Below are positions 25,211 to 60,168 of a DNA stretch of 64,000 bases, piece by piece. The notes below the pieces were generated by a model. It saw only the letters and a list, made by a program, of their open reading frames with translations, made no database searches and was not told the DNA's origin. The position numbers were made by a program, and so were the translations under genes. The stretch is from NCBI RefSeq assembly GCF_003790525.1, contig NZ_CP033635.1. One strand, 5' to 3'. This stretch comes from Escherichia coli (GTDB taxonomy: Bacteria > Pseudomonadota > Gammaproteobacteria > Enterobacterales > Enterobacteriaceae). Each line of letters starts with the position of its first letter. The first letter of the stretch is position 1.

Positions 25211-26065
25211 TTAAATAGAGACTGCGGGTTGCAGACTGACTTTAATGTCAGCTGGTGTCGCGTAATAAGGCGCGGAGGTAATAAAAAGGCGAATGCCGCA
25301 GTCGAGGTAATTTTTGAGTGTTGTCAGATTAATTCCGCCGGTCAGAGCCAGCGTGCAGTGAGGAGCCAGCGACGGTGCTATTTGCGCAATTTCAGTTGCC
25401 TGTTGCGGATTAAATTTGTCGAGCTGAAGTACGTCTGGTTGCGCGCGTAACGCGGCGATTGCCTCTTTCGGCGTGTCGGCTTCAACAACTATTTTCTTCT
25501 CGGGTGCGTGGCGACGTAACTGATTGATTGCGCCTGACCAGTCCTGATTGTCATGAAGAAAATGACGGTGGTTGGCAAACAATAATATGGTTTCCGCACA
25601 TCCGGCACGATGAATCAGTCCTCCGGCAGCCAGAATTGCCTGCGAGGCCAGTAAGCGGGTGCCCGGAATTGCTTTTCGGGTGCAGGCGATATTGCCATCA
25701 GGGTAACGTTCACGAAGTAACGCCAGCATTTGAGCGAGATAATCAGAAACACCGCAACTCCACTCCAGCACATTCTGGACTGCCTTCCATCCCTGATGAA
25801 GTGCTGCGGCATTACCTTGCGCACGGATTAGCCGCTGACCCGCGTTCGCTTGTGAACCGTCGCTGACCGCGTTATCAATAGTTAATCCCAGCGTAGTTAA
25901 CATCTTACACGCGACAGAAATTCCGCTGACGCAGCCGCCCTGACGGTGAAAAAACTCTATATAGCCATGCTGGTGTCCAATATTTAATGCTCGCGTGGTC
26001 AGGTCACCGCCCTGGATATCTTCCAGAAGTAACGCATCGATTTGTGCCTGAGAAAGGAAAATCAT
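25211..26065 (-). CDS. ModD-like protein (quinolinate/nicotinate-nucleotide phosphoribosyltransferase family homolog)
   Basis: 284-aa ORF with type II PRTase-like sequence; family assignment from memory of ModD/QPRTase features. Confidence 0.6.
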   Translation of the reverse strand: MIFLSQAQIDALLLEDIQGGDLTTRALNIGHQHGYIEFFHRQGGCVSGISVACKMLTTLGLTIDNAVSDGSQANAGQRLIRAQGNAAALHQGWKAVQNVLEWSCGVSDYLAQMLALLRERYPDGNIACTRKAIPGTRLLASQAILAAGGLIHRAGCAETILLFANHRHFLHDNQDWSGAINQLRRHAPEKKIVVEADTPKEAIAALRAQPDVLQLDKFNPQQATEIAQIAPSLAPHCTLALTGGINLTTLKNYLDCGIRLFITSAPYYATPADIKVSLQPAVSI

Positions 26066-26874
26066 CGCAGTGCCTCTTGCGGTACGCTATCCCACCAGAT
26101 GAGCGCCCAGTCGCGGCTGGCAGGGGCGAGGGCACGAGCATCTTGTTGTTGATACCAGTGATATAACCGCTCACGCTCATCGTCGTTAAGCGCGCCAAGA
26201 CTCCAGCTGACGTTCTGCTCAAAACGTTCCCAGGTGCTGTTATCCTGTTGGCAATTTTGTCCACGGATAAAATCAACGTGGGCATAAATTCCCATCTGAT
26301 ACAGGACGTTGAGCGCAAATATATAGTTGGGTAATTCGATCACTTCCCGACCAGCCGCCCGCTGAATGGCTGGAGAGACGAACGAGGTGCTGACCAGATG
26401 AGTCGTATAGACGCGAAGCCGTGCCTGATTATTCAGTTTGCTCATTGCCTGGCGCATATCAGCCACCAGAGTGGAGCGGGAAGCCACGGCAATATCGCAG
26501 CGTGGCAGGTCACTCCAGTCCTCTTCCCAGGCGCGCTGGATCCAGTGGACATTGTCTGCCTTTAGCGCGGCGGCGCGACGGGCGGCAACGTTCAGCATCC
26601 CCTGACTGTAATCAACGCCATAAATCGTCGTGAGTTTGTCAGCCAGCGCCAGCGATACGGTACCCGGTCCGCAGCCCATATCGAATAAGGTTTGTGCGCC
26701 TTGCAGATCAATTTTAGCGGTCAGTTGTTGCAGGTAGCTGTCCGTAGGCGAGGCGCAATTTTCCGCCATTTTTTCCGCCCGTTGATCCCAGTGATCCGGC
26801 GTTTTTTCTGTGCGATGGGCCAGCCTGAGTTGCTGAAGGTAAAGGTCTGCAAAATCAATATCATCAATGAGCAT
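26062..26874 (-). CDS. Class I SAM-dependent methyltransferase
   Basis: 270-aa ORF with motif I FDMGCGPGTVS; stop overlaps the ModD-like start. Confidence 0.7.
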   Translation of the reverse strand: MLIDDIDFADLYLQQLRLAHRTEKTPDHWDQRAEKMAENCASPTDSYLQQLTAKIDLQGAQTLFDMGCGPGTVSLALADKLTTIYGVDYSQGMLNVAARRAAALKADNVHWIQRAWEEDWSDLPRCDIAVASRSTLVADMRQAMSKLNNQARLRVYTTHLVSTSFVSPAIQRAAGREVIELPNYIFALNVLYQMGIYAHVDFIRGQNCQQDNSTWERFEQNVSWSLGALNDDERERLYHWYQQQDARALAPASRDWALIWWDSVPQEALR

Positions 26875-26883
26875 GATTTTTCC

Positions 26884-27642
26884 TTAGTGCTTAATTGCAG
26901 AGAGGTGATGGTGAATCTGGTCGGCAGAAACCCGGTACAGGGCAGCCAGTTTTTTCGTTGTTAACTGTTCGGTCGGTAAGCCTTGTGTTACACGTCCATC
27001 TGGCTCTACCTGGATAATGCTGTCGGCAATGGCGTTGGCATGGAGCGGATGATGAGTCGACATTAACATTGTCATGCCGTTATTTTTGAGCTGCGCCAGC
27101 GTGTCCAGTAGTTGGATCTGATGACCGAAATCGAGGCTGGAGGCAGGCTCATCCAGTAATAACAAGCGCGGTTGCTGGACGAGTGCACGGGCGATTAAAG
27201 CCAGCTGACGTTCACCGCCGCTAAGCGTATTCCAGCGTCGTGTCGCCAGATGCAAAATGCCCAGCTTTTCCAGTTGCTCCGTTGCTTTCAGGCGTTCTTG
27301 CTTACCGGGAACGGAAAAAGCGCCTATGGTGGGGGCCAGGCCCATCAACACCATATCCAGCACACTAAAAGCAAAAATGCCGTCGTGCGCCTGCGGCACC
27401 CAGGCAATAGCCTGCGCGCGCTGGCGATGGCTGAGTGTCTGCACAGGGAGGCTATCCAGTAAGATCTCGCCTTTTAATAACGGTATAACGCCAAGAATGG
27501 AGCGCATGAGTGTGGTTTTGCCGCAACCATTGGCTCCTAACAGACAACAAATTGTTCCTTGCGACAGGGTGAAGGACACGTCGCGTAGCACCGGATGGCG
27601 GGAGTAACCCAGAGACGCATGACGGACGGCAAGCAAAGTCAC
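26884..27642 (-). CDS. ABC transporter ATP-binding protein (iron-chelate/FecE-BtuD type)
   Basis: Walker A GANGCGKTT, signature LSGGERQ, Walker B LLLDEP; start set at GTG (GGAGG RBS) overlapping the permease stop. Confidence 0.85.
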   Translation of the reverse strand: MTLLAVRHASLGYSRHPVLRDVSFTLSQGTICCLLGANGCGKTTLMRSILGVIPLLKGEILLDSLPVQTLSHRQRAQAIAWVPQAHDGIFAFSVLDMVLMGLAPTIGAFSVPGKQERLKATEQLEKLGILHLATRRWNTLSGGERQLALIARALVQQPRLLLLDEPASSLDFGHQIQLLDTLAQLKNNGMTMLMSTHHPLHANAIADSIIQVEPDGRVTQGLPTEQLTTKKLAALYRVSADQIHHHLSAIKH

Positions 27643-28619
27643 TGGCGACCTCCGCGTAACAACAAAAACAGGAAAAACGGTGCGCCAACAAAAGCGGTCA
27701 GAATGCCAAGTGGGATTTCTGTTGTTCCAATGCTGCGTGCCAGCGTATCGGTAAGCAGGAGCAGAATCGCGCCAGTACACATTGCCATGGGCAACAGCTG
27801 CTGATGGTTATGACCGGTCAACAAGCGGGCAATGTGCGGAACGACCAGGCCGACCCAACCAATTATGCCCGCTATTGCTACCGTGCTGGCGGTGATGAGT
27901 GTGGCGCAGACAATCAATCCAAAGCGCAGACGTGTCACGTTCAGTCCCAGCGAACGGGCTTCGTCGTCGGAAAGTGTGAGTAAATTCATGCGCCAGCGGA
28001 GAAAAAACAGGGGCAAGGAGCCTATGAGAATGATCGGTGCAGCATAGCAGAGATCGCGTAAGGTCACGGTGGACAGCCCCCCCAGCAACCAGAAGGTAAT
28101 TGACGGTAACTGGGTGTAAGGATCGGCCAGCGTTTTTATTAGCGATATCCCCGCTCCGCACAACGTGCCTAACGCAATACCTACCAGCACCAGGGTTAAG
28201 ATCGGATCGTGGCGGGTCACCCGACGCGTAATCAACCAGACGCCCGCGACCACCATCAGCCCGCCGCAAAATGCGTACAGCTGGATGTAAACAATGGATA
28301 ATCCCCACAGGATTGCCGCGCAGGCACCAAGTCCGGCACCGGCGGAGACGCCTAAAATATCCGGTGACACTAAGGGATTACGGAACATTCCCTGATAGGT
28401 GGTTCCAGCCCCTGCCAGCGCCGCGCCCAGAAACAGCGCAGCAAGAATACGCGGCACGCGGATTTGCCAGAAGACAATTTGTTCCTGCACAGGAACATTT
28501 TCTTGACGAAGAATGAGCGCCAGCAGTTGCTGCATATCGAGATGATAAGCCCCACTTACGGCGGCAAAAGTGATACTGATAGCTGCCAGCAGCAAAATAC
28601 ATCCGTTTACGGTTCTCAT
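27639..28619 (-). CDS. ABC transporter permease (FecCD/BtuC family)
   Basis: 326-aa polytopic membrane protein; start overlaps the binding-protein stop. Confidence 0.85.
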   Translation of the reverse strand: MRTVNGCILLLAAISITFAAVSGAYHLDMQQLLALILRQENVPVQEQIVFWQIRVPRILAALFLGAALAGAGTTYQGMFRNPLVSPDILGVSAGAGLGACAAILWGLSIVYIQLYAFCGGLMVVAGVWLITRRVTRHDPILTLVLVGIALGTLCGAGISLIKTLADPYTQLPSITFWLLGGLSTVTLRDLCYAAPIILIGSLPLFFLRWRMNLLTLSDDEARSLGLNVTRLRFGLIVCATLITASTVAIAGIIGWVGLVVPHIARLLTGHNHQQLLPMAMCTGAILLLLTDTLARSIGTTEIPLGILTAFVGAPFFLFLLLRGGRQ

Positions 28620-29641
28620 TAGCTCGCCACCAATTTTTGATAGTCGGCGTCACTGAGTGAACAATGCCAGAACAGTTGGGCGTAATGCTGCATGTCACTT
28701 TTAAACTGGCGATTGATGGCGGGATCCAGCCAGGCGTGAAGTCTGCGTAATCCCAGAAGACGGTTGATTCCCGGCGGGGCATCCAGCCAGCCAAAGGGCA
28801 GGCCACTTAAAAATAAGATGCGTTGTTCCGCAACCGCTTTCACGCCCTGCCAGAGAGGATCACGACGAATAAAATCTGCAGTAACGGCCTCCTGAACCAG
28901 AATAATATCCGGCTGCCAGCGCAGGAGATTTTCCATGGAAACCTGTGTCAGACCGTGGCGATCGGCTATTTGCGCGACGTTGTGCAAACCTAATAATTCC
29001 GCCGCCTCGGTATGCAACGAACCCTGTAAGCCCGTTTCCAGCCCTCGAGGACCGCGCGCAGCATAAAAGCTGAGGTTAGCGGCGGGTGAGGTGGCGAATG
29101 CCTGAGCTTCACCAACGAAGCGGCTGGCGAGATTGGCTTGTTCTGCGGCGCGGTGCTCTTCGCCTAACGTTTTGCCAAGCGTTGTTAACTGTTCTGCTGA
29201 TTGTTCCAGTTTCCCGTTAAGCAATAACCAGGGTATTTGTGTCTGTTCGCTAACCTGCCGTGCCTGGGAGATCCAGGTTTCATCCGTATTGCCGCAATCA
29301 ACGACCAAATCGGGATGTAACGCCATAAGCCCTTCCAGCGAGAGTGTGCTGGCGCGCCCGGCGAGTCGTCCCAGCCTGGGGAACTGGCGAATGTGCTCTG
29401 GCAATGGAATTAATGCCTGACGGGCAAAATCAAAAGAGGAAAAACCGACCATTTTTTCTGGCGCGACAGCCAGCAATAGTAAATCGGCGGGCGCGCCTGC
29501 GCTGACGATGCGTGTAATGTTTTGGGCTTCGGGAAGCGTCAGTGAGGACCAGAATTTGACTGATTGTGCAAAGGACGGCAGATGATGCAGGAACAATGTC
29601 GACGCAAGAATCTGTGTAAACCTCCGTCTGGTTAGTGACAT
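28619..29641 (-). CDS. Periplasmic substrate-binding protein (TroA/BtuF/FhuD-like) with Tat-like signal peptide
   Basis: Start set at internal ATG with RBS-like cagga; N-terminus MSLTRRRFTQILASTLFLHHLPSFAQ. Confidence 0.7.
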   Translation of the reverse strand: MSLTRRRFTQILASTLFLHHLPSFAQSVKFWSSLTLPEAQNITRIVSAGAPADLLLLAVAPEKMVGFSSFDFARQALIPLPEHIRQFPRLGRLAGRASTLSLEGLMALHPDLVVDCGNTDETWISQARQVSEQTQIPWLLLNGKLEQSAEQLTTLGKTLGEEHRAAEQANLASRFVGEAQAFATSPAANLSFYAARGPRGLETGLQGSLHTEAAELLGLHNVAQIADRHGLTQVSMENLLRWQPDIILVQEAVTADFIRRDPLWQGVKAVAEQRILFLSGLPFGWLDAPPGINRLLGLRRLHAWLDPAINRQFKSDMQHYAQLFWHCSLSDADYQKLVAS

Positions 29642-50127: not shown

Positions 50128-50235
50128 TTACTTCCGGTTACGCCACCAGCTGACAATCGCTGCGGTAATAATTCCCGCCAGGATCGGTGCTGCCAGGTCG
50201 TGCCAGAAAGTCATGGCAAACTGCGTGAGCGTCAT
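50128..50235 (-). CDS. ldr: Type I toxin Ldr (35 aa), copy 1
   Basis: Minus-strand ORF MTLTQFAMTFWHDLAAPILAGIITAAIVSWWRNRK; below the 60-aa ORF-track cutoff. Confidence 0.8.
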   Translation of the reverse strand: MTLTQFAMTFWHDLAAPILAGIITAAIVSWWRNRK

Positions 50236-50285
50236 ATAGCCGCCTTGTTGTAATGACAACATTTTGCGGCTATTCTTGAATTGTT

Positions 50286-50350
50286 CTGGTTCAAGATTAG
50301 CCCCCGTTCTGTTGTCAGGTTGTACCTCTCAACGTGCGGGGGTTTTCTCT
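50286..50350 (+). ncRNA. rdl: Rdl antisense RNA (antitoxin), copy 1; boundaries approximate
   Basis: Antisense to the ldr leader; ends in a hairpin (cccccg...cggggg) followed by TTTTCTCTTT; placement from recalled Ldr/Rdl architecture. Confidence 0.4.
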
Positions 50351-50579
50351 TTCCAGCAACCAATGCCACCAGGGATAAAGCCCCCGCAACATTGCGCCTC
50401 ACCGGATAACTCCGGCTTGGTGTGGATACTACGTCTCAATTCATCTTCACTTCATCCCTGAAATGTTTGCAATGAAGAGTGCATTCCGGTTTTTCAACAG
50501 CTGTTACAGTCGTTTCATGAGTGCTCTGGATGATGCTTCCAGCTCGGGTTGCCAATATTTACTTGCAGAAGAGATAAAG

Positions 50580-50612
50580 ACAAAAAGGGCCGCAGGCTGT
50601 TACCCCTGCGGC
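50580..50612 (-). terminator. Rho-independent terminator of ldr copy 2
   Basis: Stem gggccgcagg/cctgcggcc followed on the minus strand by a T-run. Confidence 0.6.
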
Positions 50613-50662
50613 CGGTTTCGGGCGCATATTGCCATCACGGCAGCCTGACGCCCGTTTTCACC

Positions 50663-50770
50663 TTACTTCCGGTTACGCCACCAGCTGACAATCACTGCGG
50701 TAATAATCCCCGCCAGGATCGGTGCCGCCAGGTCGTGCCAGAAAATCATGGCAAACTGCGCGAGCGTCAT
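50663..50770 (-). CDS. ldr: Type I toxin Ldr (35 aa), copy 2
   Basis: Minus-strand ORF MTLAQFAMIFWHDLAAPILAGIITAVIVSWWRNRK. Confidence 0.8.
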   Translation of the reverse strand: MTLAQFAMIFWHDLAAPILAGIITAVIVSWWRNRK

Positions 50771-50821
50771 ATAGCCGCCTTGTTGTAATGACAACATTTT
50801 GCGGCTATTCTTGAATTGTTG

Positions 50822-50886
50822 ATGGTTCAAGATTAGCCCCCGTTCTGTTGTCAGGTTTTACCTCTCAACGTGCGGGGGTTTTCTCT
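50822..50886 (+). ncRNA. rdl: Rdl antisense RNA (antitoxin), copy 2; boundaries approximate
   Basis: Same hairpin plus U-tract as copy 1. Confidence 0.4.
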
Positions 50887-52933: not shown

Positions 52934-53629
52934 GTGATAACGCGTGATTTCTTGATGAATGCCGATTGTAAAACGGCATTTGGTGCCATTGAAGAATCAC
53001 TCTTATGGTCAGCAGAGCAACGGGCGGCTTCGCTGGCGGCGACGCTGGCTTGTCGACCTGATGAGGGACCGGTGTGGATCTTCGGTTATGGATCGTTGAT
53101 GTGGAATCCGGCACTGGAGTTTACCGAGTCGTGCACCGGTACACTGGTTGGATGGCATCGCGCGTTTTGCCTGCGCCTGACCGCCGGGCGCGGGACTGCG
53201 CACCAGCCGGGACGGATGCTTGCACTGAAAGAGGGCGGACGCACCACAGGCGTCGCCTATCGACTGCCAGAAGAGACGCTGGAGCAGGAACTAACCCTGT
53301 TGTGGAAGCGCGAGATGATTACCGGCTGTTATCTGCCAACCTGGTGTCAGCTTGATCTTGATGATGGACGCACAGTAAACGCCATTGTGTTTATTATGGA
53401 CCCGCGACATCCAGAATATGAATCTGACACTCGCGCTCAGGTCATCGCGCCGTTGATTGCGGCGGCGAGCGGTCCGCTGGGAACCAACGCACAATACCTG
53501 TTTTCACTGGAACAGGAGCTTATCAAACTGGGAATGCAGGACGATGGGCTGAATGATTTGCTGGTATCGGTAAAAAAACTGCTGGCGGAGAATTATCCGG
53601 ATGCTGTGTTACGGCCGGGATTCGCCTGA
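52934..53629 (+). CDS. chaC: Glutathione-specific gamma-glutamylcyclotransferase ChaC
   Basis: 231-aa ORF from GTG start with GGAGG RBS; YGSL motif (IFGYGSLMWNP). Confidence 0.85.
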   Translation: MITRDFLMNADCKTAFGAIEESLLWSAEQRAASLAATLACRPDEGPVWIFGYGSLMWNPALEFTESCTGTLVGWHRAFCLRLTAGRGTAHQPGRMLALKEGGRTTGVAYRLPEETLEQELTLLWKREMITGCYLPTWCQLDLDDGRTVNAIVFIMDPRHPEYESDTRAQVIAPLIAAASGPLGTNAQYLFSLEQELIKLGMQDDGLNDLLVSVKKLLAENYPDAVLRPGFA

Positions 53630-53672
53630 GTAAACTTCCCTCATAGTGGGGCGTCAGACGCCCCCTCAAACA

Positions 53673-54026
53673 TTAAAATGTGAGCACTTTATCGGCTGAC
53701 AGCGTCCATTGCGCCAGTTCAACAAGAGTACCGATTTCCACCCCATCAATCAGAGGAAGTGTGCTAATCCCGCGTCCGTCAGTACAGGTTTTGCACAATT
53801 TCACCGGTACATTCTGAGCGGTAAGGATCTCCAGCATTTGCTGAATGTTGTAGCCTTCCCCTGGTTTTTGCCCGCGCAACCCGGCTGTGACCGCATCAGA
53901 CATCAGGAACAGACGCAGATCCAGATTGCTCTCCTGCTCTCGTAACGCAATGGCCAGCCGCAAGCTGTTAAACAAGGATTCGCTCCCGTAAGGTGCTCCA
54001 TTGGCAACGATCACGATTTTTTGCAT
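53673..54026 (-). CDS. ychN: DsrE/DsrF-like family protein YchN
   Basis: 117-aa ORF MQKIVIVANGAPYGSES... Confidence 0.85.
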   Translation of the reverse strand: MQKIVIVANGAPYGSESLFNSLRLAIALREQESNLDLRLFLMSDAVTAGLRGQKPGEGYNIQQMLEILTAQNVPVKLCKTCTDGRGISTLPLIDGVEIGTLVELAQWTLSADKVLTF

Positions 54027-54074
54027 TATTTACTCCTGTATTCAGGGAATTAGACACTCATCTTCTATCTTACC

Positions 54075-54201
<127 letters not shown>

Positions 54202-54210
54202 ACCGACGTT

Positions 54211-55605
54211 TTGAGCCGTTTCGTTCCTCGCATTATTCCGTTTTATTTACTCTTGCTGGCGGCAGGCGGTACAGCTAACGCACAATCTACCTTCGAGCAA
54301 AAAGCGGCAAATCCCTTTGATAATAACAATGATGGTCTGCCGGATTTAGGCATGGCACCTGAAAATCATGATGGGGAAAAACACTTTGCGGAAATTGTGA
54401 AAGATTTCGGCGAAACCAGTATGAATGATAACGGGCTGGATACTGGCGAGCAGGCAAAAGCTTTCGCATTAGGAAAAGTCCGCGACGCGCTTAGTCAACA
54501 GGTTAATCAGCACGTAGAGTCCTGGCTATCACCGTGGGGAAATGCCAGTGTTGACGTCAAAGTGGATAACGAAGGACATTTCACCGGCAGTCGCGGAAGC
54601 TGGTTTGTGCCGTTACAAGATAATGATCGTTATCTCACCTGGAGCCAGCTTGGTCTTACTCAGCAGGATGATGGCTTGGTGAGCAATGTGGGCGTAGGGC
54701 AACGCTGGGCGCGCGGCAACTGGCTGGTGGGTTATAACACTTTTTATGACAACTTGCTGGACGAAAATCTTCAGCGAGCGGGCTTTGGTGCCGAAGCGTG
54801 GGGCGAATATTTGCGACTATCGGCAAACTTTTATCAGCCGTTTGCTGCATGGCATGAACAGACAGCCACGCAGGAACAGCGGATGGCGCGCGGGTACGAC
54901 CTGACAGCCCGGATGCGCATGCCGTTCTATCAACACCTCAATACCAGTGTCAGCGTAGAACAGTATTTTGGTGATCGTGTCGATTTGTTTAACTCTGGTA
55001 CGGGTTATCACAATCCCGTCGCGTTGAGTCTGGGATTAAATTACACCCCTGTGCCCTTAGTCACTGTGACGGCCCGGCATAAACAGGGTGAAAGTGGCGA
55101 GAATCAAAATAACCTCGGGCTGAATCTTAACTACCGCTTTGGTGTACCGCTCAAAAAACAACTTTCTGCGGGCGAAGTTGCCGAAAGTCAGTCGTTACGT
55201 GGTAGTCGCTATGACAATCCGCAGCGAAATAATCTTCCGACTCTTGAGTACCGACAGCGAAAAACCTTAACGGTGTTTCTGGCGACACCGCCGTGGGATC
55301 TAAAACCTGGCGAAACAGTGCCGCTGAAATTACAAATCCGCAGTCGTTACGGTATTCGGCAACTGATTTGGCAGGGCGATACGCAGATATTAAGTTTGAC
55401 GCCGGGCGCACAAGCCAACAGTGAGGAGGGCTGGACGCTGATCATGCCTGACTGGCAAAACGGGGAAGGCGCAAGCAATCACTGGCGATTGTCAGTAGTG
55501 GTGGAAGATAACCAGGGGCAGCGTGTCTCCTCCAATGAGATCACGCTAACGCTTGTCGAACCGTTCGACGCATTGTCAAACGACGAACTGCGCTGGGAAC
55601 CGTAA
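54211..55605 (+). CDS. ychO: Invasin/intimin-like outer membrane protein YchO
   Basis: 464-aa ORF with signal peptide and inverse-autotransporter-like beta domain; synteny next to narL. Confidence 0.75.
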   Translation: MSRFVPRIIPFYLLLLAAGGTANAQSTFEQKAANPFDNNNDGLPDLGMAPENHDGEKHFAEIVKDFGETSMNDNGLDTGEQAKAFALGKVRDALSQQVNQHVESWLSPWGNASVDVKVDNEGHFTGSRGSWFVPLQDNDRYLTWSQLGLTQQDDGLVSNVGVGQRWARGNWLVGYNTFYDNLLDENLQRAGFGAEAWGEYLRLSANFYQPFAAWHEQTATQEQRMARGYDLTARMRMPFYQHLNTSVSVEQYFGDRVDLFNSGTGYHNPVALSLGLNYTPVPLVTVTARHKQGESGENQNNLGLNLNYRFGVPLKKQLSAGEVAESQSLRGSRYDNPQRNNLPTLEYRQRKTLTVFLATPPWDLKPGETVPLKLQIRSRYGIRQLIWQGDTQILSLTPGAQANSEEGWTLIMPDWQNGEGASNHWRLSVVVEDNQGQRVSSNEITLTLVEPFDALSNDELRWEP

Positions 55606-56256
55606 TCAGAAAATGCGCTCCTGATGCACCCATACCGCAGCTTCCACGCGAGACTTGAGCTTCATTTTCTTCAGCATGTGCTTGACGTGCACTTTTACTG
55701 TGCTTTCGGTGATATCCAGGCGGCGGGCAATCATCTTGTTCGGCAAACCCTGGGCAATCAGCTTGAGAATATCGCGCTCGCGTGGGGTTAACTGGTTAAC
55801 ATCGCGTTCAGTAGTGGCACGGTTAGCGCGCAAGCTGGCGGCCAGAACAGGCGTTAATGCTTCGCTTAATACCATTTCGCCAGCAGCTGCCTGATGCAAT
55901 GCTTTCAGCAGATCTTCCGGTTCCATATCTTTTAACAGATAGCCATCCGCGCCGCGTTTCAGTGCGGTGACCACATCTTCTTCATGGTTAGAGACGCTGA
56001 ATACCACAATGCGACCGGAGAGGGACTTTTCGCGCAGTTTATCCAGCGTTTCCAGACCGTTCATGCCGGGCATATTGAGATCTAACAGGATCAGATCGGG
56101 ATCAAGAGATTCCGCCAGTTCAATACCCTGTTCGCCATTACTCGCTTCGCCAACCACGGTGATATCTGGTGCCATACTGATAAGCTGTTTTACGCCAGTT
56201 CGCAGCATCGGGTGATCGTCGATCAGCAGGATAGTAGCCGGTTCCTGATTACTCAT
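55606..56256 (-). CDS. narL: Nitrate/nitrite response regulator NarL
   Basis: 216-aa ORF from [19 protein letters not shown]; receiver plus LuxR-type HTH. Confidence 0.95.
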
Positions 56257-58045
56257 GGGTATCTCCTTGGACGTCTGTGAAAGTTTTTTCGGGAATAAAG
56301 GTGACAACCACTTCGGTGCCACCTGATTCACGACGGCGGACGCGGCAATCGCCTCGTAAACTTTGCGCACGGTCGCGCATTATTATCATGCCGTAGTGAT
56401 TGCTGCGGATGGCATTTTCAGGCACGCCGCAGCCGTTATCCTGGACGGTCAGTTTGACCTGATTATCGTTTTGCGCCACCGTCACCACGACCTCACTCGC
56501 TTGCGAATGTTTGAGGGCGTTACTTAATGCCTCACGGGCAATTTGCAACAAGTGGATTGCCTGATGCGAAGGCACCAGACGAGGCGGCAATTGATAATCC
56601 AGCTTCACCGGGAAGCCAAATTTGGCGCTGTACTCTTCGCAACTCGCCTCCAGCGCCGGACGTAATCCAGGCTCGGTGAGCTGCAAACGGAATGTGGTGA
56701 GCAATTCACGCAACTGCGCCCAGGATGCATTCAGTTCGTTACGGATCTGACTTAACAGTTCGCGGCTGCTTTCTGGCAGCGCATCGCCCTGCATCTGTAA
56801 ACAACTCACCTGCATCTTCATGCAAGAGAGAGATTGGGCAATAGAATCATGCAGTTCGCGCGCAATGGTGGCACGCTCTTCCATCACGATCAACTGTTGC
56901 TGACGTTCCTGATGGCGATCCAGCGCCAGCGTGGCGGTGAGTTGTTCAACCAGGGTATCCACCAGTTGTTGTTGATCATGGCTAAGATGACGCCCCTGCG
57001 GCAGGGTCGCCAGCAAAATACCGTACTGCGTATGAGAGTCAGCCAGCCGCCACTTCAGGGTTGTGCCGCGATCGCCAACGGGTAATATGCCGCGCGGGCA
57101 GAGCTGGCAGCCTTTATCATCACAAGTCATATCTGGCTGGCAGGTAAACTCCTGATGATTCTCTTCATCATCAGTGTCATACACCCGCAGTTCGATATCA
57201 CGTAGCAGGGTTAAATTCTGTAAGCCGTTGAGTACCGGTGACAGGCGTTCACACAGCGGGGCGCGGGAATGCAAACGGCGGTTAGCCTGCCATAAAAAAG
57301 AGAGGATCTGATTTTTATGCTCCAGCCCGGCAGTTTTCTCCTGAACCCGCTGCTCAAGTACGGCATAACTTTCGGCCAGTTCTGCAGACATATTGTTCAA
57401 TGCAGTTCCAAGCATCGCCATTTCGTTGCGCCCGCTGATGTTTGCGCGTTGGGTAAAATCGCGATGGCTGACGGCACTCGCCATTGCCAGCAGTTGCCGC
57501 CACGGTTGTAGCAGTCGCGCCCGCAACCAGATAATAGTGAACACCAGTAAAAGTGCCATAAATACCGCCATTACCCGATGGACCAGTACCACTGTCTCAA
57601 TGCGCATTTCCGTGGTGCGGTCAAAACCAGATACCAGCTGATCAAGCCCGGCAACAAACTGGCTGACATCCGCTGACACCGTTTCGCGGTTTTGTGCACG
57701 CATCAGCGCAGGGATCAGTTCATTACGCCAGTAATCTTGTAAACCCTGTAATTGCGCCAGTTGTCCGTCTCGTTCCGCTGCTCGAGTCAACTCGGCGCTA
57801 AATGCCGTTTGTTCCATTTCTTTAATTAAGGGCTTGTCTTTCTCGCTTAATGGCACTGCCGCCAACAGACGGTAACTTTGCATGCGCAGCGATCCCGCTT
57901 TGTTGATCGCATGGGCGCTGCCCTGAACGCCTTGCACCAGCCAGCCAGAAACTGCCATCCCTGCCAGTCCAATAGCAGTAGAAAGCAACACAATAAGCGC
58001 AACCTGATTAACCAGGGTGAGCGGAGAGAGACAACGTTTAAGCAT
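56249..58045 (-). CDS. narX: Nitrate/nitrite sensor histidine kinase NarX
   Basis: 598-aa ORF with two TM segments, HAMP, HisKA_3 and ATPase region; stop overlaps narL start. Confidence 0.95.
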
Positions 58046-58310
58046 GTAAACCTCTTCCTTCGGGCTTTAAATGAGCAATAACCTTAATGAATGTGACGAT
58101 ACATTCTGGAATGGCAGTATTCTCGGCTATTGGCTGAAGTATACCCATACCCGGAAAGAGTTACTCCTTATTTGCCGCGTGGTTAGTCGCTTTACATCGG
58201 TAAGGGTAGGGATTTTACAGCACCGTGAAAAATCTCATAATTTTTATGAAATCACTGTACTCACTATGGGTAATGATAAATATCAATGATAGATAAAGTT
58301 ATCTTATCGT

Positions 58311-59775: not shown

Positions 59776-60063
59776 ATCTTAATATTTGATTATCCTTTGC
59801 GCGGCATGATGTCGCGCTTTTTTTATGCGTCATTTAGTTACAACATACTCATATTATATTGGCTTATTTCGCCGGATTTCATTAAGAGCCATTAATATGT
59901 TACCCATGGGGAATACTCCTTAATACCCATCTGCATAAAAATCTTAATAGTTTAAATAACTACAGGTATAAAACGTCTTAATTTACAGCGTGTTATGCTG
60001 TAACTGCTAATTATCCTAAAGGGGTATCTTAGGAATTTACTTTATTTTTCATCCCCATCACTC

Positions 60064-60077
60064 TTGATCGTTATCAA
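60064..60077. promoter_or_regulatory. FNR box in the narG promoter
   Basis: TTGATcgttATCAA, perfect TTGAT-N4-ATCAA, about 90 bp upstream of narG; NarL-heptamer-like TACCCAT further upstream near 59925. Confidence 0.75.
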
Positions 60078-60168
60078 TTCTCACGCTGTTTCAGAGCGTT
60101 ACTTTGCCCTTAAACATTAGCAATGTCGATTTATCAGAGGGCCGACAGGCTCCCACAGGAGAAAACCG

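Follow-up and report, generated by a model that had tools for sequence, protein, structure and literature searches.

The window analysed here is a 64,000-nucleotide stretch of Escherichia coli DNA that matches the reverse complement of positions 1,934,055-1,998,054 of the SMS-3-5 chromosome with 7 mismatches over its 64,000 bases. On this identity, its source is E. coli SMS-3-5 or a strain almost identical to it. The gene considered, ychO, lies in a 2.8-kb ychN-ychO-narL region which is 100% identical to SMS-3-5 and to several other genomes (Table 1). An earlier note on this DNA had described a 464-residue open reading frame and named it ychO. The frame was found as described, both in the ORF list and in RefSeq, and the name is borne out by RefSeq and by the YchO/YchP equivalog model NF007556 of NCBIfam, which aligned residues 5-454 of the protein with model positions 3-452 of 454 and scored 802.8 bits for a cut-off of 508. 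In SMS-3-5 the gene was described as iatA (EcSMS35_1920, 1,395 bp; Goh et al. 2019, PMC6714894), with no difference of substance from the gene of the window. The K-12 protein (b1220) differs from that of the window by 5 amino acids, its start, stop and neighbours being alike. ychO is an already known and correctly annotated core gene of E. coli; its organisation is monocistronic, with ychN diverging from it and narL facing it tail to tail.

Table 1. Coordinates of the features of the ychO locus, numbered from the first base of the 64,000-nucleotide window.
Feature	Position	Strand	Remarks
ychN-ychO divergent spacer	54027..54210		184 nt; presumed ychO promoter and leader
ychO (= iatA) CDS	54211..55605	+	464 codons and TAA, TTG start; ORF list, RefSeq, NCBIfam
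Predicted signal peptide	54211..54282	+	Residues 1-24 (MSRFVPRIIPFYLLLLAAGGTANA, then Q); read from sequence
Presumed periplasmic N-terminal region	54283..54525	+	Residues 25-105; AF2, Pfam, orthologue alignment
Predicted 12-stranded outer-membrane beta-barrel	54526..55146	+	Residues ~106-312; AF2, Foldseek, Pfam IAT_beta
Predicted short helices and linker	55147..55242	+	Residues 313-344; AF2, invasin alignment, conserved motif
Predicted single Ig-like passenger	55243..55560	+	Residues 345-450; AF2, Foldseek, phmmer; intimin D00-related
Variable C-terminal tail and TAA stop	55561..55605	+	Residues 451-464; divergence, low AF2 confidence
TAATCA junction	55603..55608		ychO TAA (55603-55605) abuts complement of narL TGA (55606-55608)
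narL (response regulator)	55606..56256	-	RefSeq, ORF list; convergent neighbour of ychO

The start codon deserves attention, as TTG is not the only candidate. An in-frame TAA is found at 54169-54171 and the TTG at 54211 is the first start codon after it. This TTG is the curated ychO start in K-12, and RefSeq gives the gene the coordinates of the window ORF in SMS-3-5 and equivalent ones in K-12 MG1655. Two other codons were considered and rejected. An ATG located 12 codons upstream of the TTG is not in frame in either the window or K-12, and runs into a TGA in both; a nearby run of T residues has five Ts in the window and reads TTATT in K-12. In strains with a run of six Ts this ATG comes into frame and yields ychO gene calls of 476 amino acids. 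Besides having the wrong frame here, it would put acidic residues ahead of the signal peptide. The next ATG, Met48, was the start of an old 417-residue annotation corrected in Pilatti 2016 (PMC4787180), and its use would delete the signal peptide. Because the upstream ATG is closed off in this way, the TTG at 54211 is the only start giving YchO a signal peptide in this strain.

The predicted signal peptide, which the earlier note had already recognised, could be seen by eye: a basic n-region (MSRFVPR, two Arg) is followed by a 13-residue hydrophobic core (IIPFYLLLLAAGG) and by a TANA/Q cleavage site with an A-x-A motif, that is, small residues at -3 and -1. The same conclusion was reached in Pilatti 2016 (PMC4787180). 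This region varies among the orthologues, with a mean top-residue frequency of 0.39 among the matches listed. Residues 25-105, which come next, presumably lie in the periplasm; AF2 modelled them with helical segments at a pLDDT below 50, and Pfam detected no domain there, LysM included, except the start of IAT_beta. In this region residues 43-105 are partly conserved in the 106 orthologues among the matches listed, for instance in the LP.LG and GEAS motifs.

The sole Pfam domain of YchO is IAT_beta (PF11924), at residues 64-341, with an E-value of 8.6e-103 and 344 bits for a cut-off of 22.3. The earlier note had seen an inverse-autotransporter-like region and proposed a search for the invasin/intimin beta-domain as its check; the domain is thus detected, and the region is what it was taken for. 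A phmmer search against the PDB retrieved two beta-domains, that of invasin from Yersinia (4e1t, E 2.7e-47) and that of intimin from EHEC (4e1s, E 1.4e-40), far beyond chance; sequence search with the full protein reached no other solved structure. Other inverse-autotransporter models of NCBIfam match the N-terminal and barrel part only, far under their cut-offs: the intimin model NF033627 scored 183.4 bits for a cut-off of 1400 (model positions 184-546 of 939) and the SinH model NF033423 scored 242 bits for a cut-off of 999 (model positions 8-358 of 730). In YchO, Pfam found neither a LysM nor a Big_1 or lectin domain.

An AF2 model of YchO was built from a 60-sequence alignment. The N-terminal ~100 residues were of low confidence; twelve long strands were predicted at residues 111-309 (pLDDT ~90 and above), then two short helices (314-317 and 320-326), a linker and a beta-sandwich at residues 345-448 (pLDDT ~90). 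Compared by Foldseek with 4e1t and 4e1s, the barrel gave a TM score of 0.91 and an rmsd of 1.9-2.1 Å over a 242-column alignment including the plug helices and the linker. The model thus predicts a 12-strand barrel with an internal helix and linker like those of the intimin and invasin crystal structures. In the helix and linker region the SLRGSRYD...R motif is conserved among orthologues, and the invasin sequence alignment reaches YchO residue 348. The predicted topology is inverted, with an Ig-like passenger placed C-terminal to the barrel and made of one domain only. By every computational measure used, YchO belongs to the inverse autotransporters.

The C-terminal 127 residues were also modelled separately (pLDDT 86). 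The best Foldseek match of the isolated C-terminal domain was 6tqd, the D00-D0 fragment of intimin, with an E-value of 2e-5, a TM score of 0.61 and an rmsd of 2.9 Å, ranking above generic Ig folds. It was also the top phmmer match of this domain, a weak one (E 0.023). Searched in isolation, the domain had no Pfam match and no Big domain, weak Big_* matches being scattered among its homologues, so that the fold is assigned by structure prediction. The alignment with the NCBIfam intimin model extends to YchO residue 448 and those with long inverse autotransporters to ~450; the passenger is therefore homologous to their first, membrane-proximal Ig domain. The tail that follows (451-464) is variable, with 25% identity to Citrobacter koseri and a mean top-residue frequency of 0.38 in the orthologues among the matches listed.

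YchO thereby shares with intimin of EPEC/EHEC and with Yersinia invasin the signal peptide, the 12-strand barrel (35-40% identity), the plug helix and the linker, and its passenger is homologous to intimin D00, the first extracellular Ig-like domain of that protein. Unlike both, it has no LysM, no further Big_1 repeats, no C-type lectin tip and no known Tir- or integrin-binding module, and it is encoded by a core chromosomal gene instead of being located in a pathogenicity island. With only one D00-type Ig domain and no lectin tip, receptor binding of the invasin or intimin kind cannot be assumed for it. The best NCBIfam model other than its own is that of SinH of Salmonella, or IatB of E. coli (residues 12-357), related in the N-terminal region and barrel. 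The passenger of SinH/IatB is short and of IgSF fold, as in YchO, but these proteins have ~725-743 residues and a downstream sinI-like gene, whereas YchO has 464 residues and no co-encoded partner. ZirT of Salmonella, like YchO, consists only of an IAT barrel and a short IgSF C-terminal extension; its substrates ZirS and ZirU are encoded downstream in its operon, and nothing comparable lies beside ychO in the genera examined.

Of 5,426 complete E. coli genomes, 5,422 carry the locus, and an intact copy is kept by essentially every E. coli; iatA had been reported in 99% of 126 genomes with more than 98% conservation (Goh et al. 2019, PMC6714894). Compared with C. koseri, dN/dS was 0.05 overall, 0.11 in the passenger and 0.43 in the last 12 residues, values that point to strong purifying selection on ychO. 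To find the family elsewhere we scanned genomes with a DNA pattern for two motifs, FLATPPW ... WQGDTQ. The signature was recovered in at least 120 Enterobacterales species-level genomes, the carriers including Citrobacter, Enterobacter, Kosakonia, Serratia, Rahnella, Erwinia, Pantoea and others, together with Salmonella enterica subsp. arizonae and diarizonae. Among the matches listed, all 106 near-full-length orthologues measured 434-494 residues, so that the single-domain architecture is fixed in them. Column conservation over these 106 listed orthologues, a set chosen using Ig-domain motifs, was 0.75 in the Ig domain and 0.71 in the barrel. An unbiased whole-protein search, from which three representatives 47-52% identical were taken, gave identities of 0.53-0.60 in the Ig domain versus 0.46-0.54 in the barrel. 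The Ig domain of YchO is thus conserved to the same degree as its barrel, whereas in other inverse autotransporters its identity is much lower than that of the barrel (0.21 versus 0.38). From these sequence comparisons we infer that a conserved passenger, present in plant-associated genera as well, is easier to reconcile with a conserved partner than with a receptor specific to a host.

Downstream, ychO and narL converge with zero intergenic bases, a statement of the earlier note on which the window sequence and RefSeq agree. The junction reads GAA CCG TAA/TCA GAA AAT, and in the RefSeq annotation of both SMS-3-5 and K-12 MG1655 narL begins on the base after ychO, on the opposite strand; narX lies upstream of narL with an 8-nt overlap. 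With a spacer of 0 nt no terminator fits between ychO and narL, so that the two transcription units must either overlap or terminate within one another. The TAATCA junction of the window is found again in C. koseri, though the YchO tail differs there. Among the matches listed, the convergent arrangement was kept in 56 loci with both genes, as far as Serratia and Rahnella (YchO ~48% identical), and Erwinia and Pantoea had ychO without an adjacent narL. The stop-to-stop distance over the 56 species listed was -4 nt (TTAA-type shared stops) in 18, 0 nt in 16, 2-6 nt in 8 and 20-80 nt in 10, the four remaining species being outliers, two with gaps of 642 and 1,395 nt and two with computed overlaps of 48 and 54 nt. 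The two genes overlap, abut or lie within 6 nt in 42 of these 56 species and are arranged otherwise in 14. The upstream neighbour of ychO varies, being ychN in E. coli and nasA-like genes in C. koseri; the neighbours elsewhere include PEBP and bestrophin genes, and none encodes an Ig-like secreted protein in the genera examined. From RNA-seq of K-12, ExcludonFinder reports overlapping transcripts for ychO-narL and places the pair in the convergent excludome of MG1655, having seen it in 50% or more of 58 transcriptomes. Another convergent pair of the 64-kb window, emtA/ycgR, has a 1-nt gap and also figures in the K-12 excludon list, indicating that so close an arrangement, though uncommon, is not exceptional. 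A neutral origin of the ychO-narL junction is no less likely than a regulatory one, since a pair whose spacer has been lost is hard to separate by rearrangement.

The regulatory signals of the region were then scanned. The ychN-ychO spacer is 99% identical to that of K-12. One weak sigma-70 match was obtained in the region (54001-54029), not above chance expectation, and no Rfam family was found in or beside the locus. A single NarL-type heptamer (TACYYMT) is located at 54031-54037 and overlaps the ychN ribosome-binding site; with this one heptamer and no NarL-site cluster upstream in the spacer scan, control of ychO by NarL was discarded. The terminator scan revealed, on the minus strand, a hairpin followed by a T5 run at 55292-55269, antisense to the RKTLTVFLATPPW codons. 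It was rejected as a narXL terminator and taken as a chance feature, its T-run being broken in other Escherichia. Among the matches listed, the mean hairpin dG was -13.7 in narL-adjacent species (n=58) and -16.7 in non-adjacent ones (n=62), and neither hairpin energy nor T-run length set the two groups apart. In all, 5 terminator-like matches were found in the region, not above the 3.4 expected from shuffling.

Goh et al. 2019 (PMC6714894) assigned the IatA passenger to an FnIII/Ig-like fold by Phyre2, looked for the protein and found it undetectable, and speculated that it may aid the translocation of other proteins. In APEC, a ychO mutant had lowered adhesion, invasion and biofilm, which complementation restored, and over-expression raised biofilm (Pilatti 2016, PMC4787180). 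In the same study ychO was expressed in vitro and in vivo, 426 transcripts were altered in the mutant, for which the authors suggested a membrane disturbance, and the difference in chick survival was not significant overall; neither narL nor narX is mentioned. Adhesion, which the earlier note had put forward as the function of such proteins, belongs to the family as a whole; in the case of YchO it goes back to this one APEC knockout, with its non-significant survival assay. Heinz et al. 2016 (PMC4943183) described inverse autotransporters whose IgSF extensions are short, as well as a ZirT/SinH class with co-encoded substrates. A paper on Cronobacter ESA_00986 was set aside as evidence on ychO, as it merely cites the gene and establishes no orthology.

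Taken with the domain order, folds, family membership and purifying selection computed here, these data make it probable that the ychO product is a minimal type Ve autotransporter showing one D00-type Ig domain and having a short-range attachment role. The precursor would be exported by Sec via its 24-residue signal peptide and would leave residues ~25-105 in the periplasm. Residues ~106-312 would form a 12-stranded barrel inserted in the outer membrane, with a need for the BAM complex by analogy with intimin and invasin, and by the same analogy the helix and linker (313-344) would fill and traverse its lumen. The C-terminal Ig-like domain of ~105 residues would be threaded out and displayed near the cell surface; export route, BAM dependence and surface display are here extended to YchO from its family. 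The protein would act as a short-range module for attachment between cells or to surfaces and for biofilm, and not as a long-reach receptor-binding invasin. A single Ig domain is a few nanometres long, so that it may not reach past the LPS O-antigen or a capsule, which weakens a direct role as host adhesin. The equal conservation of ychO in plant-associated Erwinia and Pantoea argues against an animal-host receptor. The short-range attachment role itself is suggested by the single APEC knockout study, whose phenotypes may be indirect given the 426 altered transcripts.

In another reading, YchO is no adhesin but a conserved envelope component whose membrane-proximal Ig domain, periplasmic N-terminal region or both bind a conserved bacterial partner, the mutant phenotypes then being indirect effects of a perturbed envelope. 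It would account for an Ig domain as conserved as the barrel, unlike that of other inverse autotransporters, and for a family found in plant- and animal-associated genera alike. It also agrees with the position of the homologous intimin D00, a juncture domain beside the barrel and not at the tip according to the PDB title, and with the membrane disturbance proposed in Pilatti 2016 (PMC4787180) for the 426 changed genes. However, no partner is known or co-encoded, and the restored adhesion on complementation and the raised biofilm on over-expression fit a direct role; we hold this reading to be possible but rather doubtful. That YchO translocates other proteins in the manner of ZirT and SinH, as raised speculatively by Goh et al. 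(PMC6714894), is very improbable: its short C-terminal IgSF extension does resemble this class (PMC4943183, PMC6714894), but the substrates of ZirT, SinH and Yfr4 are encoded immediately downstream, whereas ychO is monocistronic, its neighbours in the other genera examined include no Ig-like secreted protein and its score with the SinH model falls far below the cut-off (242 bits versus 999). It is hardly credible that ychO is what is left, decaying and without function, of a longer adhesin of the intimin/invasin type that was cut off behind its first Ig domain. The passenger is indeed reduced to the D00-type domain where long members continue with many Big_1 repeats, and IatA was undetectable in one study (PMC6714894), but a dN/dS of 0.05 indicates strong purifying selection, the architecture is fixed at 434-494 residues in 106 orthologues of many genera among the matches listed, and essentially every E. 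coli has an intact gene, which is expressed in APEC (PMC4787180).

The junction with narL could itself be functional, an excludon making ychO and narXL mutually antagonistic and so tying nitrate sensing to YchO. The pair belongs to the convergent excludome of MG1655, it extends from Escherichia as far as Serratia and Rahnella even though the upstream neighbour is not constant, the genes lie at -4, 0 or 2-6 nt in 18, 16 and 8 of the 56 species listed, and a terminator cannot fit between them. Yet a zero spacer is what one would expect under neutrality, too, after the loss of intergenic DNA, and emtA/ycgR has its 1-nt gap in the same window. The arrangement differs in 14 of the 56 species listed (12 gaps of 20-1,395 nt and 2 overlaps of 48 and 54 nt), a NarL-site cluster is absent upstream of ychO, and Erwinia and Pantoea keep ychO without a neighbouring narL. 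We therefore regard a functional junction as unlikely. Still more improbable is a combined version, in which YchO would be no host-cell invasin but an envelope protein docking a non-host partner and possibly wired to narXL by convergent transcription; if true, such wiring would explain why the two stops overlap, abut or lie within 6 nt in 42 of the 56 species listed.

The gene matters modestly; among the inverse autotransporters of E. coli, YchO/IatA is the most widespread one. A passenger of unusually strong conservation and a narL junction kept in many species go slightly beyond the literature searched and leave the classification of the gene unchanged. As the junction has no room for a terminator, ychO deletions, published or future, may disturb the 3' end of narXL, and the published APEC deletion may have done so too. 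The D00-type conserved passenger, the plant-associated orthologues and the narL junction can help in the design of experiments. A ChIP-exo study listed ychO among the direct targets of YfeC, and a sigma-54 mapping study located a site within the ychN gene, at a distance of 405 bp upstream from ychO.

The start of ychO is preceded by a run of Ts whose length differs between strains. Five Ts are present in the window (54187-54191), versus TTATT in K-12 and 6 Ts in other strains. The 6-T form brings an ATG into frame 12 codons upstream, and this results in gene calls of 476 aa. An 81-nt stretch containing the 5 Ts has exact matches in 1,166 records; with 6 Ts, the number of matching records is 101. 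Further upstream, a sigma-54 binding site directed towards ychO has been reported within the K-12 ychN gene, with the sequence TCGGTACAGGTTTTGCA. Relative to this report, the conserved GG at -24 is replaced by AG in the counterpart carried by the window. From the sequence, weaker binding of sigma-54 would be expected in the window strain.

Among the retrieved YchO homologues, one (P0007, encoded on an ENA contig of 4,487 nt) has a mosaic composition. Its N-terminus and barrel are Citrobacter-like, with 76-88% identity to the window protein, and its Ig domain and tail are 100% identical to E. coli YchO. This variant is either a recombinant allele or the product of a chimeric metagenome assembly. 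The ychN-ychO-narL region, searched with window 53600-56400, gave 13 matching places on records labelled as plasmids and up to 3 copies in a few genomes; these may represent F-prime-like elements or replicons that were wrongly assigned.

NarL-type heptamers (TACYYMT) were counted over the entire window, yielding 53 occurrences for 30.5 expected from shuffled sequences. They are clustered in the intergenic regions on either side of narK, towards narX and towards narG (58142-58272 and 59846-60175), consistent with the known nitrate-regulated promoters.

A second convergent pair with a near-zero spacer, emtA/ycgR, was identified within the window (21363-22710). The two genes are arranged tail-to-tail with a gap of 1 nt and, like ychO-narL, they belong to the listed convergent excludons of K-12, pairs whose transcripts overlap at their 3' ends.

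Elsewhere in the window, an Ldr/rdlD locus (50128-50884) comprises 2 type I toxin genes and 2 antitoxin sRNAs; the corresponding K-12 locus presumably holds three ldr/rdl copies. Between treA and ymgE, a gene cluster (23215-29641) encodes an iron ABC transporter (substrate-binding protein, permease and ATPase), a SAM-dependent methyltransferase, ModD and a TonB-dependent receptor, and looks like an accessory iron-uptake island. At the beginning of the window, a truncated autotransporter pseudogene adjoins minE.

Coordinates of the features detected in the window
Feature	Position	Strand	Remarks
Autotransporter beta-barrel pseudogene	1-253		Truncated, without N-terminus; RefSeq annotation
C0299 sRNA	6970-7048	+	Rfam RF00119, 106.7 bits
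emtA	21363-21974	+	
ycgR	21976-22710	-	
Pair of Ldr-family type I toxin genes	about 50128-50235, 50663-50770	-	
Two rdlD-type antitoxin sRNAs	50283-50348, 50819-50884	+	Rfam RF01813
Counterpart of the K-12 intragenic sigma-54 site	53779-53795	+	Inside ychN; reads TCAGTACAGGTTTTGCA
Region with the polymorphic T-run upstream of the ychO start	54176-54213		Varies across E. coli
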